DNA of 64,000 bases, from contig JBBTTB010000005.1 in NCBI GenBank assembly GCA_038064455.1, forward strand, positions 21,983 to 85,982. The letters are read 5' to 3'. The position numbers and the translations under genes were made by a program. Position 1 is the stretch's first letter, and the number at the start of each line of letters is the position of its first letter. This stretch comes from Patescibacteria group bacterium (lineage in GTDB: Bacteria; Patescibacteriota; Minisyncoccia; 2-02-FULL-40-12; GWA2-44-9). Positions 21,806 to 34,555 of the stretch are shown here, piece after piece. A model generated the notes under the pieces. It searched no databases. It was not told the origin of the DNA and saw nothing but the letters and a program-made list of their open reading frames with translations.

Positions 21806-21879
21806 TGCGGGGTCGTCTAATGGTAGGACAGCGGCCTTTGAAGCCGTGAATCTTGGTTCGAGTCCAGGCCCCGCAGCCA
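21806..21879 (+). tRNA. tRNA-Gln (anticodon UUG)
   Basis: Manually folded cloverleaf. Acceptor TGCGGGG/CCCCGCA with U1:A72 and G73 as in bacterial tRNA-Gln, D-arm GTCT/GGAC, anticodon stem GCGGC/GCCGT with loop CTTTGAA, T-arm CTTGG-TTCGAGT-CCAGG and an encoded CCA. Confidence 0.8.
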
Positions 21880-28865: not shown

Positions 28866-29069
28866 ATGAGGCGAATCGTTTATATTTTAAAAATGAGTAA
28901 AACAGAGTTAAAACAACACGCCGAACAGATCGAAGTAAACCTAAAAGCATACCTGGAATTACTTGCAGAGTTAGAACATGAGAGAAAAAAGATTATTGAC
29001 GAATTCTCAGAAACTCTAAGATTGAGAAAAATCAAAGAGTTAAAAAGATCTTTATCTACTAATGGATAA
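28866..29069 (+). CDS. small hypothetical coiled-coil protein (alt start 28893)
   Basis: AT-rich ORF of 67 aa, Lys/Glu-rich. Confidence 0.3.
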   Translation: MRRIVYILKMSKTELKQHAEQIEVNLKAYLELLAELEHERKKIIDEFSETLRLRKIKELKRSLSTNG

Positions 29070-30009
29070 TCAAGAAGTAGTTCCCGCAATAAAGCCCCTG
29101 GAAGTTTCGGAACAACAATCCTTAAAAACTAAGGAAGAACTTGAGGTTTCTGATGAAAAACAGCTAGAGTTGCTTAAAGACCGAGTTCTTGGGGTTATCA
29201 GAAGCAAGGCGCAGGGAGTAAAAAAGACCATCACTGGTTCACTTGATCGTGTATTCAAGTCCTTTAATTTGTTCCGTGGGTCTATCGGGGATCGAGAAGA
29301 AAATGATTTTGATGCCGAATTCTCCTTGAATTCTGAAGAAATTGACCAATTGGCGGGGTATTTTGAAGAACAAGTCAAGGATATCACCCCGGGCTTGATT
29401 GGCTTAGGGGCTGAGAAAAAAATCTACCAACATCCCTTGCACCCAGATAGAGTAATCGGTGAGTATAACGAGGATCATCCTGATTCAGTTCGTAAAGCTA
29501 AGGCCCGTTTTTATTTTTATAAAATATTAAACACTCTTCTCCTCGATTATTTTCCAAGAATGATACTGGCGGCAGAGAAAAGGTTTGAAGCATCACGATT
29601 GGATGGGGACCCTTATAAAAAACTTCGCGACCGTCTTAGGCAAAATAGGGGTCATCTCAACCCCACCCAAATAGATCGGGTATTAGAAAAACTACATGTA
29701 ATGGAGGAGGGTTTTCGCAGAACTAGCCGGTTTAAGAAATTTCAGAATGATCTATGGTCTCTCGGTATAGCGGCGGATGCAAATAGGGTAAACTTTTTTG
29801 ATGCCACTGATGGGTTAAAATATGTGGATACTATCGATCCGTGGTTGAATAGATATAGTGACGGTGCTCTTGTACCTAATTTTAACCCAGAGCAACTCTT
29901 GCAGATAATTGAGAGCCTCCCTGATGAGCAAAGAGCGAGAACCAGAGTCTACTATGAGAGACTGGTCGGTTTGTTGACGGAAGAGAGAGAGATTACTATG
30001 CCGGCATAG
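29062..30009 (+). CDS. hypothetical protein (315 aa, low GC)
   Basis: Long ORF with no recognisable motif. It overlaps the preceding ORF by 8 nt. Confidence 0.5.
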   Translation: MDNQEVVPAIKPLEVSEQQSLKTKEELEVSDEKQLELLKDRVLGVIRSKAQGVKKTITGSLDRVFKSFNLFRGSIGDREENDFDAEFSLNSEEIDQLAGYFEEQVKDITPGLIGLGAEKKIYQHPLHPDRVIGEYNEDHPDSVRKAKARFYFYKILNTLLLDYFPRMILAAEKRFEASRLDGDPYKKLRDRLRQNRGHLNPTQIDRVLEKLHVMEEGFRRTSRFKKFQNDLWSLGIAADANRVNFFDATDGLKYVDTIDPWLNRYSDGALVPNFNPEQLLQIIESLPDEQRARTRVYYERLVGLLTEEREITMPA

Positions 30010-30282
30010 ATGCTTATAGCCCCCTAAGTGTTTATTTAGGGTCTCAATTTATCTCATTTTCCCAGATCAATGAGCCTCATTCTGCCTCTGGCTAAAGACT
30101 TAACCCTCTAGTATGCATTCTATAAATGCGATCACTAGAGTGGGTACCGCAACTGCCGCGCTCGAATCCCGAGAGGGAAACTAACCCTATCCTACGCGCC
30201 CTATGTACCCGTTGCACGGGGCGTCTGTTTTTTAGTGGTATATAATGAATGTAACGTTTCATGATAGGCACTATTGATGTAT

Positions 30283-30323
30283 GGGTTAACTTGTGTTAAC
30301 CTTATAGGAGCGATAGGGTTAAC
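30283..30323 (+). promoter_or_regulatory. three GGTTAAC-containing repeats (two as inverted pair) upstream of HTH gene
   Basis: GGGTTAAC-ttgt-GTTAACC followed by GGGTTAAC, a likely operator for the adjacent HTH protein. Confidence 0.4.
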
Positions 30324-30330
30324 GAAACAT

Positions 30331-30612
30331 ATGGAGCAAAACACTACAAAAAAGACATTCCTCTCTGTCCCAGAATTGGCCAAAATGCTTGGCATTAGCC
30401 GTATTGCGGCTTTTCGTAAGGTTAAAAAGGGACACATTCCAGCCCACAAAATTGGGCGTATGTACGTTATTTCCATGGAAGATGCGCTCGCGTTTGTGAA
30501 CGAGGGGCAGTCTGACGTGCTCACGGAACCTAAAAAAGACGAAATTAAAAAGGCAGTTGCTCGAGTTGTCCAAGAATACGGCGAAACACTCAAGCTTTTA
30601 GGGAAAGAATAA
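30331..30612 (+). CDS. helix-turn-helix (excisionase/MerR-type HTH_17) DNA-binding protein, putative antitoxin/regulator
   Basis: VPELAKMLGISRIAAFRKVKKGHIPAHKIGRMYVI matches excisionase-family HTH. The start is uncertain, between 30274 and 30331. The stop lies 1 nt before the Doc gene. Confidence 0.5.
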   Translation: MEQNTTKKTFLSVPELAKMLGISRIAAFRKVKKGHIPAHKIGRMYVISMEDALAFVNEGQSDVLTEPKKDEIKKAVARVVQEYGETLKLLGKE

Positions 30613-30613
30613 T

Positions 30614-31039
30614 ATGAAGCTGAAACGGCTCACCCTCACTGATATAGAGTACGTCGCACATAGACTTGCACAAGAAACGATGTCGTGGCGTGAACCTATC
30701 CCTGACTTCGGCACACGATACTCAAACGCGCTTGAGCGGTGCATTGATGCGCCGTTCCAATCCTTTGGTGGTAAGCAGTTATATCCCGGCCTTGTGAGGA
30801 AGGCTTCGATACTATTTTATTTGATGATCAAAAATCATCCGTTTCAGAACGGAAATAAAAGATTAGCGATGACGACGCTCTTCTTTTTTCTCTTTCGGAA
30901 TAAGAAGTGGATGAAAGTTGATACACAAGAACTGTATAATTTTGCAGTCTGGGTTGCGAAAAGCAATGCGAAGGTGAGGGCCGACACCATACGAGCGGTA
31001 GAAACATTTCTCGGTAGCTATATAGTTGATATAGAATAA
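30614..31039 (+). CDS. Doc (death-on-curing)/Fic-fold toxin family protein
   Basis: HPFQNGNKRLAMT matches the Doc variant of the Fic motif (HxFx[DN]GNKR). 141 aa. Confidence 0.6.
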   Translation: MKLKRLTLTDIEYVAHRLAQETMSWREPIPDFGTRYSNALERCIDAPFQSFGGKQLYPGLVRKASILFYLMIKNHPFQNGNKRLAMTTLFFFLFRNKKWMKVDTQELYNFAVWVAKSNAKVRADTIRAVETFLGSYIVDIE

Positions 31040-31044
31040 ACGCG

Positions 31045-32058
31045 ATGAAACGCCTTTCTTATGGTGTTATAGCGTTGGTGCTCGCTATGCTCGTGGTGGG
31101 CGGCGTTTCGCTTTTGAGTGACAGGAGCCAGACCATCACCAACGGAACTGAAACGAGATCACCATTTTCGTTCCCCGATATTCCTTCTTTCTTTTCCAGC
31201 AAAGAGGGAAGCATGATCTTTGTGGGAGATATCATGCTCTCGCGTTCCGTGGGCATTCGCATGGCGAAAGAAAATGATTACACCTTTCCATTCCTGCACG
31301 CCGCCGCGTTTCTCCAAGATGCGGATATCACCTTCGCGAATCTTGAGAACCCAGTCTCTGCTCGGGGAAAGAACGTGGGGAGCATCTACTCGTTCCGCGC
31401 TGATCCAAAAACAATCGAAGGGCTTGTGCTCGCGGGCTTTGATGTAGTCTCTATCGCGAATAACCATATGTGGGACTACGGGCGCGAAGCGTTCCTTGAT
31501 ACGCTCTCGCATCTCACACAGGCCGGCATTGATTTCGTGGGCGGCGGGAACAACGCCGCAGAGGCAGAGCGGCCCGTGGTGCGAGACGTGCAGGGCACGC
31601 GCGTGGCGTTTTTGGCCTATACCGAATTTCTGCAGAGTGCGGTGGCGGGGGAGGCATCGGCGGGCATCAGCCGGTGGGATCCCGAGCGCATGGCCGCCGC
31701 TATTGCCAGCGCAAAGCAGGAGAATAATATCGTGGTGGTTTCATTGCACTGGGGCGAGGAATACAAAACACAGCACAACCAACAGCAGGAGACCATTGCG
31801 AAGGCGGCGATTGATGCGGGGGCGGATCTGGTCATCGGGCACCATCCGCACGTGGTGCAAGAGGTGGAACGCTACAAAGATGGCTGGATAGCCTACAGCC
31901 TTGGTAATTTTATATTTGATCAGTATTTTTCAGAAGCAACGATGCGGGGCCTTGTGCTGAAGGTGCGCATCAAAGATGGGAAAGTGCAGAGCGTAGAGGA
32001 ATATGATAGCGCGCTCTCAAAAGAGTTTCAGGTGCGCATCACCGCACGTAAGGAATAG
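31045..32058 (+). CDS. CapA/PgsA-family metallophosphoesterase-like protein (poly-gamma-glutamate/capsule-type), membrane anchored
   Basis: N-terminal TM, then IFVGDIML...NLENP, GFDVVSIANNH and GHHPH motifs typical of the CapA family. Confidence 0.65.
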   Translation: MKRLSYGVIALVLAMLVVGGVSLLSDRSQTITNGTETRSPFSFPDIPSFFSSKEGSMIFVGDIMLSRSVGIRMAKENDYTFPFLHAAAFLQDADITFANLENPVSARGKNVGSIYSFRADPKTIEGLVLAGFDVVSIANNHMWDYGREAFLDTLSHLTQAGIDFVGGGNNAAEAERPVVRDVQGTRVAFLAYTEFLQSAVAGEASAGISRWDPERMAAAIASAKQENNIVVVSLHWGEEYKTQHNQQQETIAKAAIDAGADLVIGHHPHVVQEVERYKDGWIAYSLGNFIFDQYFSEATMRGLVLKVRIKDGKVQSVEEYDSALSKEFQVRITARKE

Positions 32059-33469: not shown

Positions 33470-34555
33470 GTGAATCTTTCCGATATCGCACAACTTCGGT
33501 TGCAGAGCCAACGCATTGGGCGCACGCCGTTTGCAACGGTTGCAGCAGTCGTGCGCCACTTAGGCGCAGTACAAGCACAAGATATCCCGAGTGCGCTCTG
33601 GGCTGTTGGTCTGCGCATGAAGCGTGCGAATGAACAGACTATTCTTGATGCGCTTGCGGAACAGCGCATTGTGCGCACGTGGCCCATGCGTTCCACGCTT
33701 CACTTTGTTGCGCGAGAAGATGTGCGCTGGATGCTTGATCTTATGACACCACGCGTCCTTTCCGCCTATGCGCATCGCATGCGCATGCATGGCATCACCA
33801 CGGCAACCTATGACAAAAGTAGGGTGCTTTTTGAAAAAGCGCTGAAGGGTGGCAAGGCGCTGACGCGCGAAGAACTCTATGCGGTTCTTGAATCTGCGGG
33901 CATTCCTGCAAAGCGAGCAAGTTTGGGATTGCACATCATCGGGCGCTTAGCGCACGAACAGTTGCTCTGTTTTGGCCCACGGCGAGGCAAACAACAAACG
34001 CTGGTGCTTCTTGACGAATGGGTGCCGCGCGTTGGAAAGCCGCGAGATCGAGATGATGCACTGCGTGAATTGGCGATTCGGTATTTCACCAGTCACGGTC
34101 CTGCGCAGGAAAAAGATCTCGCATGGTGGTCCGGTCTTGCTCTCAAAGATATCCGCGCGGGCATCGCGCACGCAGTCAAGGCGCTCACGAGCGTTGCTGT
34201 AGAGGGTACAACGTATTGGATGGCGCCGCGTCGAGTAGTGCCGCAGAAAACAGGAGAGGCCTTTCTCCTTCCTTCGTTTGATGAATTCTTTGTTGCGTAC
34301 CGTGATCGGAGCGCCTCGTTGGAGGCAATGCACACGCATCACATAAACCCGGGCGCAAATGGCATGCTCCAACCTATTATTGTGGTTGATGGGCAGGTGC
34401 TTGGCACATGGAAGCGGGTGATCACAAAAGACACCGTGCAGATTTCACTTCACTTTTTCAATAAACCTTCTCCAGAGGTGAAAACCGCAGTGCACGAAGC
34501 AGGCGAGCGCTATGCCCATTTTCTTAGGCTCTCTTTGGAATTAAAAAAGGGGTAG
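33470..34555 (+). CDS. winged-helix DNA-binding protein, YcaQ/DUF1006-like (putative DNA glycosylase family)
   Basis: 361 aa with a non-ATG start. An overall YcaQ-like length and pattern (TWPMRSTLHFV, LLPSFDEF). Confidence 0.5.
   Translation: MNLSDIAQLRLQSQRIGRTPFATVAAVVRHLGAVQAQDIPSALWAVGLRMKRANEQTILDALAEQRIVRTWPMRSTLHFVAREDVRWMLDLMTPRVLSAYAHRMRMHGITTATYDKSRVLFEKALKGGKALTREELYAVLESAGIPAKRASLGLHIIGRLAHEQLLCFGPRRGKQQTLVLLDEWVPRVGKPRDRDDALRELAIRYFTSHGPAQEKDLAWWSGLALKDIRAGIAHAVKALTSVAVEGTTYWMAPRRVVPQKTGEAFLLPSFDEFFVAYRDRSASLEAMHTHHINPGANGMLQPIIVVDGQVLGTWKRVITKDTVQISLHFFNKPSPEVKTAVHEAGERYAHFLRLSLELKKG

Follow-up and report, generated by a model that had tools for sequence, protein, structure and literature searches.

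A predicted toxin-antitoxin cassette, mainly of Patescibacteria, in which a Doc-type protein is paired with a winged helix-turn-helix partner and GGTTAAC operator repeats

Doc of bacteriophage P1 is a kinase of EF-Tu and is encoded, together with its antitoxin Phd, in a tightly coupled two-gene operon in which the antitoxin comes first. Phd is bipartite, consisting of an N-terminal DNA-binding domain with the Phd/YefM fold and a C-terminal helix, and the operon possesses a palindromic operator in its own promoter. In the chromosomal EFPhd-EFDoc system of Enterococcus faecalis (PDB 9VZC; PMC13034048, NAR 2026), the DNA-binding domain of the antitoxin has been swapped for an AbrB-like β-sheet dimer with a single palindrome as operator. 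The helix at the C-terminal end of EFPhd (residues 52-79) inserts into Doc, the C-terminus of Phd likewise binds Doc as a helix, and kinase activity has been reported for EFDoc, with EF-Tu described as the acceptor of phosphate from ATP (PMC13034048). In a census of type II toxin-antitoxin systems, the partners given for Doc/Fic proteins are PHD, AbrB, Xre, and YhfG, and MerR-like antitoxins are listed only together with PIN toxins (Makarova et al. 2009, PMC2701414). Here we analyze a cassette of two genes, coding for a helix-turn-helix (HTH) protein and a Doc-family protein, in a stretch of 64,000 nucleotides from a Patescibacteria group bacterium (contig JBBTTB010000005.1, positions 21,983 to 85,982 of the forward strand). 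This whole stretch is referred to as the window; coordinates are positions in the 64-kb window, and both cassette genes are encoded on its plus strand.

The locus is, in our estimation, very probably a mobile type II toxin-antitoxin-like operon that encodes a Doc kinase and a bipartite, autorepressing HTH antitoxin. As far as can be judged from its sequence, the cassette is a type II toxin-antitoxin module of the ordinary kind, in which two small, co-oriented, and tightly spaced genes move jointly among genomic contexts, and the fold of the antitoxin alone is unusual for Doc. The genes and the protein features that carry this explanation are the following:

30331 to 30612, plus strand: putative antitoxin gene, 93 amino acids; HTH_17 and TIGR01764 above their cut-offs, with an AlphaFold2 model and conservation in support
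30358 to 30510, plus strand: predicted winged HTH, MerR-like/excisionase-type, residues ~10-60 of the antitoxin, from the AlphaFold2 model and HTH_17
30614 to 31039, plus strand: putative Doc-family toxin gene, 141 amino acids, with its ATG at 30614; Pfam Fic and TIGR01550 above their cut-offs
30836 to 30862, plus strand: catalytic motif HPFQNGNKR, Doc residues 75-83, read from the sequence
30274 to 30612, plus strand: mechanical open reading frame (ORF) of the HTH gene, TTG start, 112 amino acids, TAA stop at 30610-30612

The original prediction had an HTH protein of 112 residues stopping one nucleotide before a Fic-fold protein of 141 residues. The gap, a single base (30613) between the TAA stop of the HTH gene and the ATG of the Doc gene, and the 141 residues agree with the ORF scan; the length of the HTH protein had to be reduced to 93 residues. 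The TTG at 30274 was discarded as the start codon and ATG 30331 adopted instead, because the three repeat sites described below are located inside the longer ORF and would have to be upstream and coding at the same time, because alignments with the HTH homologs of 80 loci begin at the first residue of the ATG 30331 version, and because TTG 30274 falls on a -35-like hexamer that is conserved. In addition, the shorter version is favored since an identical protein of 93 residues is recorded at NCBI (P0121), where it is named 'helix-turn-helix domain-containing protein [Patescibacteria group bacterium]'.

By its sequence, the second gene encodes a Doc-type protein and not an AMPylating Fic. The search with hidden Markov models for Fic and Doc that had been proposed for this protein gives matches above both cut-offs, namely to Pfam Fic (PF02661; E=1.3e-9, 39.2 bits versus a cut-off of 24) and to TIGR01550 DOC_P1 (46.5 bits versus a curated cut-off of 38.65), and together with the motif HPFQNGNKR bears out the earlier assignment as a Fic-fold protein of the Doc type. 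The motif fits the definition given for Doc, which is HXFX(D/N)(A/G)NKR (PMC13034048). It is retained in 119 of 120 database homologs and in 80 of the 81 locus proteins, hence in 199 of 201 family members, the exception among the locus proteins (L079) being a truncated gene. The closest solved relative is Doc from E. faecalis (9VZC_A; E=6.9e-9 with the sequence alone and 1.6e-10 with the family profile), in which HCFYNANKR aligns with HPFQNGNKR; the match to P1 Doc (3k33) is marginal (E=0.061), with the motif aligned. Among 32 representatives, the mean column identity of Doc amounts to 84%. At NCBI, an identical protein is annotated as 'type II toxin-antitoxin system death-on-curing family toxin', and several homologs are named likewise. 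Judging from its family and from the examples of Doc in P1 and in E. faecalis, free Doc would be expected to phosphorylate EF-Tu and thereby to arrest translation.

Relatives of this Doc are numerous, more than 5,000 being found in databases; the best 120 have 140-147 residues, are 73-100% identical, and originate, where named, from Patescibacteria/Paceibacterota. A scan with one genome per species detected a Doc relative in 390 genomes, and the genome-locus statistics reported here rest on the best 80 of these 390. They show 60-80% Doc identity and are mostly Patescibacteria, and some are metagenome-assembled genomes labelled Omnitrophota, Elusimicrobia, Aminicenantes, Firestonebacteria, and others. 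An HTH homolog (38-66% identity) is encoded directly upstream of Doc in 80 of 80 loci. Conversely, the HTH profile was used to collect 80 metagenome loci; 79 of these extend far enough beyond the HTH gene, and in 76 of the 79 Doc is located directly downstream. Counted between HTH stop and Doc start, the interval ranges from -8 to +12 nucleotides, mostly from -4 to +3 (81 pairs), and the antitoxin diverges faster than the toxin, with best homologs at 68% and 85% identity, respectively. Clustering of the flanking ORFs reveals HTH and Doc as the only genes common to the loci, and among the contents of the variable flanks are genes for type I restriction-modification, methyltransferases, MazG, and a further Fic protein. 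Since the flanks are not conserved, the cassette appears to be a self-contained, horizontally mobile two-gene unit, which occurs mainly in Patescibacteria. Among viral contigs of IMG/VR, no Doc relative was found with the patterns used, and plasmid and phage collections yielded distant Doc relatives only (<41% identity), with other or unannotated partners.

A few loci depart from this arrangement. L112 and L120, which represent the same element, contain an orphan HTH gene beside uvrB, without Doc and with the GTTAAC operator sites kept, in L111 the HTH gene is followed by an unrelated ORF of 87 amino acids instead of Doc, and in L079 the Doc gene is truncated after 46 codons. These cases show signs of decay or of a change of partner.

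The 93-residue protein matches HTH_17 of Pfam (E=3.6e-9, 37.2 bits versus a cut-off of 27) and TIGR01764 'excise', the excisionase family DNA-binding domain of NCBIfam (32.6 bits versus a cut-off of 28.8), as well as, weakly, PHROG 66 'excisionase and transcriptional regulator', so that curated libraries provide only a generic HTH or excisionase label. No match to the Phd/YefM family was obtained in Pfam, in NCBIfam, or in a profile search of the PDB. An AlphaFold2 model (mean predicted local distance difference test score, pLDDT, 78.8) has a β-α-α-β-β-α arrangement over residues 10-60, followed by a single C-terminal helix of 26 residues (residues 66-91, nucleotides 30526-30603). When compared with the PDB by Foldseek, the N-terminal domain aligns with RacA (5i44; root mean square deviation, rmsd, 2.2 Å over 54 columns), BldC (6ama; 1.4 Å over 49 columns), and the excisionase Pukovnik Xis (4j2n; 1.7 Å over 48 columns), and also with RdfS (8dgl); for the RacA/BldC/Xis class, target template modeling (TM) scores are 0.6-0.78 and E-values only ~1e-2. 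According to this model, the N-terminal domain belongs with the truncated MerR-like winged helices, and the earlier description of the protein as an excisionase-type HTH_17 partner is confirmed by the profile scores and the predicted fold.

Conservation of the HTH protein (mean column identity 55%) is concentrated in the HTH itself and in the last 12 residues, EYGETLKLLGKE, which in this respect surpass all other parts apart from the HTH; the pattern of this C-terminal tail matches 183 of 201 sequences. A search of the PDB with the C-terminal helix returned designed helical-repeat proteins and centrins only, and no Phd-like antitoxin, a result that is uninformative. By analogy, the conserved amphipathic C-terminal helix (66-91) most likely docks on Doc and neutralizes the toxin.

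The repeats upstream of the HTH gene, three GGTTAAC sites of which two form a palindrome, are present as the original prediction described them, and with the corrected start all three precede the coding region. The elements of the predicted operator and promoter are arranged as follows:

30283 to 30301: operator palindrome GGGTTAAC-ttgt-GTTAACC, with GGGTTAAC at 30283-30290 and GTTAACC at 30295-30301, 4 base pairs (bp) between them
30316 to 30323, plus strand: third operator site GGGTTAAC, in a predicted short 5' leader, 8 nucleotides before the ATG
30274 to 30279, plus strand: probable -35-like hexamer TTGATG, whose TTG is also the 'start' of the mechanical ORF
30297 to 30302, plus strand: candidate -10 hexamer TAACCT, within the right half of the palindrome, with TG at 30294-30295 (extended -10)

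The two GTTAAC hexamers of the palindrome are 10 bp apart from center to center. The 64 kb of the window contain 4 copies of GGTTAAC, a total that is unremarkable when compared with a mean of 4.7 in shuffled sequences; the observation is nevertheless real, because three of the four copies cluster within 40 bp (Poisson probability ~4e-9 for a single 40-bp interval, ~1e-5 when the entire window is considered). For statistics across loci, the 150 nucleotides before the HTH start were compared with the other 410 kb of locus DNA in those 75 loci that had at least 100 nucleotides of upstream DNA. GTTAAC reaches a density of 16 per kb upstream of the HTH start versus 0.095 per kb elsewhere, a difference of ~170-fold, and the palindrome GTTAAY-N4-RTTAAC is present upstream in 45 of the 75 loci and absent (0 occurrences) from the remaining 410 kb. 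In 35 loci, that of the window included, a TTGAC-like hexamer begins exactly 11 nucleotides before the first operator hexamer, and all 35 show TAnnnT at a spacer of 17 nucleotides, other spacer lengths performing worse. In each of these 35 loci, the candidate -10 element is TAAC(C/A)T preceded by TG and represents the inner part of the second hexamer. A third hexamer follows the second in the orthologs at a distance of 19, 22, or 23 bp, its start lying mostly 14-17 nucleotides before the ATG, and many loci have a fourth one 19 or 22 bp upstream of the first; the window lacks such a GTTAAC 'hexamer 0' 19-22 bp before hexamer 1, where many orthologs have one. In more distant loci the sites are differently arranged around TTGACA, yet always over the promoter.

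It is also informative that the operator varies together with the protein. The predicted recognition helix comprises residues 24-33 of the HTH protein, with residue 25 in its first turn. Glutamine or threonine occurs at residue 25 in 5 of 5 loci with sites of the GTTGTC/GACAAC type and in 0 of 66 others (Fisher p=4e-7), Q29 is found in 3 of 6 loci with CTTAAC/GTTAAG repeats versus 0 of 66 others (p=3e-4), and H24 is restricted to loci with GTTAAT-type sites (3 of 23 versus 0 of 49). From this co-variation, which is the strongest evidence on the point, we infer that the HTH protein reads these sites. The earlier proposal that the repeats constitute an autoregulatory operator is thus supported at the comparative level, as the HTH_17 assignment, the enrichment of the sites, their fixed position overlapping the core promoter, and the co-variation with the recognition helix all suggest that the GGTTAAC repeats behave as an operator.

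Individual loci show further variations of the operator. In eight cassettes (L048, L055, L057, L066, L080, L040, L042, and L070), the half-sites read GGTTGTC/GACAACC or ACTTAAC/GTTAAGT, with matching Q/T25 or Q29, and these altered-operator cassettes appear to be natural specificity variants. L016 has seven GTTAAC hexamers in the upstream 160 nucleotides, including a duplicated GGTTAAC-N4-GTTAACC palindrome, which looks like an expanded operator array. In L018 and L062, the third site is missing and the ATG follows only 7-8 nucleotides after a -10-like TAACCT/TAACTT, so that their mRNAs may be leaderless. In the window itself, a near-palindrome, ATGTAACGTTTCAT, is situated at 30239-30252, ~30 nucleotides upstream of the -35-like hexamer.

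A coherent mechanism can be proposed from these elements. The winged HTH of the 93-residue protein would bind GGTTAAC half-sites, of which the inverted pair spans the spacer and the -10 element of the presumed operon promoter, the third being placed in a leader of ~20 nucleotides. Occupancy of the operator would therefore block RNA polymerase, and the HTH protein would repress its own operon, repression being presumed here in preference to activation. The two genes are probably coupled translationally by means of the 1-nucleotide gap, and the C-terminal amphipathic helix would hold Doc inactive, as its conservation and the examples of Phd and EFPhd suggest.

When compared with Phd-Doc of bacteriophage P1, the cassette is alike in the Doc variant of the Fic motif, in the order and tight coupling of its two genes, in the presumed bipartite architecture of its antitoxin, and in a palindromic operator within its own promoter. 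It differs in that a MerR-like/excisionase-type winged HTH (HTH_17) takes the place of the Phd/YefM fold, in that its operator consists of GGTTAAC half-sites, a pair of which are 10 bp apart with further sites about two helical turns away, and in that its hosts are mostly uncultured Patescibacteria. With EFPhd-EFDoc it shares a chromosomal Doc, an exchanged DNA-binding domain in the antitoxin, a palindromic operator and, in the form of a predicted counterpart, the Doc-binding C-terminal helix, whereas the DNA-binding domains are of different fold and three to four half-site positions are found here instead of a single palindrome; no sequence similarity between the antitoxin of the window and EFPhd was detected in the PDB profile search or in the search with the C-terminal helix. 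The MerR(truncated)-PIN systems of the 2009 census employ the same truncated MerR-like HTH class, without wing 2 and sensor domain, but their toxin is a PIN RNase and their putative toxin-binding extension is N-terminal, whereas the present cassette combines Doc with a C-terminal extension. The Xre-Fic/Doc and AbrB-Fic/Doc pairs of the same census (PMC2701414) resemble the cassette in that they document pairings of Doc/Fic with several unrelated DNA-binding folds, including an HTH class; however, Xre corresponds to HTH_3/HTH_31 and not to HTH_17, and neither the present family nor its operator appears in the census. Since the census names no MerR-like partner for Doc, the earlier judgement that an HTH_17 partner is non-canonical was a fair one, with the qualification that HTH proteins of the Xre class were already known with Fic/Doc. 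Finally, members of the excisionase/BldC/RacA family share the fold of residues ~10-60 and bind short repeated sites, but they have neither a conserved C-terminal helix of 26 residues nor a linkage to Doc, and the present protein has no integrase partner. Searches of the literature, coverage of which was incomplete, for Doc systems in Patescibacteria and for Doc partners of the HTH_17, excisionase, or MerR type brought up no description of this pairing. Within the sources searched, the DNA-binding fold of the antitoxin is new for Doc and was not previously described; the toxin is already named Doc in public annotation.

Several observations weigh against our explanation. Doc is 60-85% identical across phyla (Patescibacteria, Omnitrophota, Elusimicrobia, and others), which is unusual for a toxin and might point to a function different from classical addiction. 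Its own AlphaFold2 model (six helices, pLDDT 49.2) is based on a shallow alignment of 32 close homologs and is unreliable for fold comparison. The C-terminal helix of the HTH protein could instead, or also, be a dimerization helix in the style of MerR, and Foldseek also aligns full-length MerR regulators to this protein, if poorly (rmsd 6-14 Å). The statistics of co-variation do not take shared ancestry into account, and two of the loci concerned, L048 and L057, are close relatives. In the window, TTGATG and TAACCT are weak hexamers that are not called by a simple promoter scan, and for this reason its promoter is deduced from conservation.

Two alternatives concern the role of the module and of its first protein. 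The same module might serve mainly as an abortive-infection or anti-phage cassette, or as a stabilizer of defense islands, which would be compatible with the operon proposed above and which we regard as possible, if tentative. Doc matches the C-terminal domain of PDC-S23, a defense-candidate family of PADLOC (E=1.4e-18), type I restriction-modification genes and DNA methyltransferases flank several of the orthologous loci, and the toxin-antitoxin field is shifting toward defense roles (PMC13034048). On the other hand, PDC-S23 has only the status of a candidate, and its architecture differs in being a fusion of ~327 amino acids; the neighbors in the window itself are not defense genes (they code for PGA_cap, an AlkZ-like glycosylase, and products whose function is unknown), and no phage trigger is known. 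It is unlikely, in our opinion, that the HTH protein is a transcription factor only, acting for a regulatory kinase, in which case its long helix would be a MerR-like dimerization helix, activation would be conceivable, and no neutralization by protein-protein contact would take place. Such a function might be suspected from the location of the operator dyad between -35 and -10, as in MerR-type promoters, and from Foldseek alignments of ~95-107 columns with HiNmlR, SoxR, BmrR, and MtaN that include the long helix. However, it is these alignments that show the high rmsd mentioned above, with TM scores of 0.3-0.46, and the good matches are to the truncated RacA, BldC, and Xis. Furthermore, the spacer has the optimal length of 17 nucleotides and not the over-long 19-20 nucleotides typical of MerR activation, the last 12 residues are, in parallel with Doc, extremely conserved, and strict pairing with tight translational coupling is typical of toxin-antitoxin pairs.

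Two further alternatives were rejected. AMPylating Fic enzymes, for example in VbhT-VbhA and FicT-FicA, carry the motif HxFx(D/E)GNGRxxR, and their partners an inhibitory motif, (S/T)xxxE(G/N). That the second protein is such an enzyme with a class I-type inhibitory partner is highly improbable: the general Pfam Fic model is matched, but the motif reads HPFQNGNKRLAM, with K in place of the G of AMPylators and without the second arginine, the cut-off of the Doc-specific TIGR01550 is exceeded, and of 81 partner proteins only 2 contain the inhibitory motif, that of the window not being among them. Neither of the two outcomes that the original prediction had named as fatal to it, a Fic motif lacking conservation among homologs or an AMPylating Fic with a different partner, is therefore seen. 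The idea that the HTH protein is an excisionase (recombination directionality factor), the repeats recombination arm sites, and Doc merely an adjacent gene is hardly credible, although TIGR01764 lies above its cut-off, PHROG 66 is weakly matched, Xis and RdfS are among the fold neighbors, and tRNA genes are found directly upstream in two loci (L062 and L075). The flanks of the 80 loci contain no conserved integrase, and none was found by Pfam scans of the window neighbors; the repeats keep a constant position on the presumed promoter that directly precedes the HTH gene; and the protein possesses an additional, conserved helix at its C-terminus and accompanies Doc in 96-100% of loci.

If the proposed operon is confirmed, a MerR-like/excisionase-type winged-helix antitoxin with a defined operator would join Phd/YefM, AbrB-like, Xre, and YhfG proteins as partners of Doc. 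The general picture would not change, as the shuffling of toxins and of antitoxin DNA-binding domains is already known. It would provide, nevertheless, a compact and conserved toxin-antitoxin family for Patescibacteria, with ~390 species-level genomes, whose hosts cannot be grown alone and whose growth control and phage defense are poorly understood, and the co-variation of operator and recognition helix would offer ready-made specificity swaps. A more far-reaching idea, which we consider doubtful, is that the cassette constitutes a lineage-spanning switch for growth and dormancy or for abortive infection in ultra-small episymbiotic bacteria, in which the MerR-like antitoxin restrains a conserved Doc by a mode new for Doc, and in which the combinations I/V25-GTTAAC, Q/T25-GTTGTC, and Q29-CTTAAC would provide a readable DNA-recognition code.

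With regard to its surroundings, the cassette lies in a region of low GC content (41-45% in 29001-31000 versus ~51% for the window), which also covers an ORF of 315 amino acids at 29062-30009 and suggests horizontally acquired DNA. This ORF has no match in Pfam, PADLOC, or PHROG. Downstream, the neighbors are PGA_cap (CapA-like) at 31045-32058 (E=1.2e-80) and an AlkZ-like DNA glycosylase at 33470-34555 (E=1.6e-64), and most other neighbors between 22.7 and 35.2 kb are without a Pfam match. In two of the 80 loci, a tRNA gene ends directly upstream of the cassette promoter, for serine in L062 (759-843) and for histidine in L075 (2608-2683). A tRNA-linked integration site was considered and discarded as a general feature, because a tRNA gene is directly upstream in only these 2 of 80 loci and within ~1 kb in only a minority. 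With Rfam, only a tRNA-Gln at 21806 was identified in the whole window, and a permissive search of 29950-30340 returned nothing. In the gap of 320 nucleotides upstream of the cassette, the plus strand at 30095-30235 folds better than shuffled sequences (-43.9 kcal/mol, z=-2.66), and this region ends with a strong hairpin (~30196-30224) and a T-run, which together look like an intrinsic terminator of the 315-residue ORF or like a small structured RNA.

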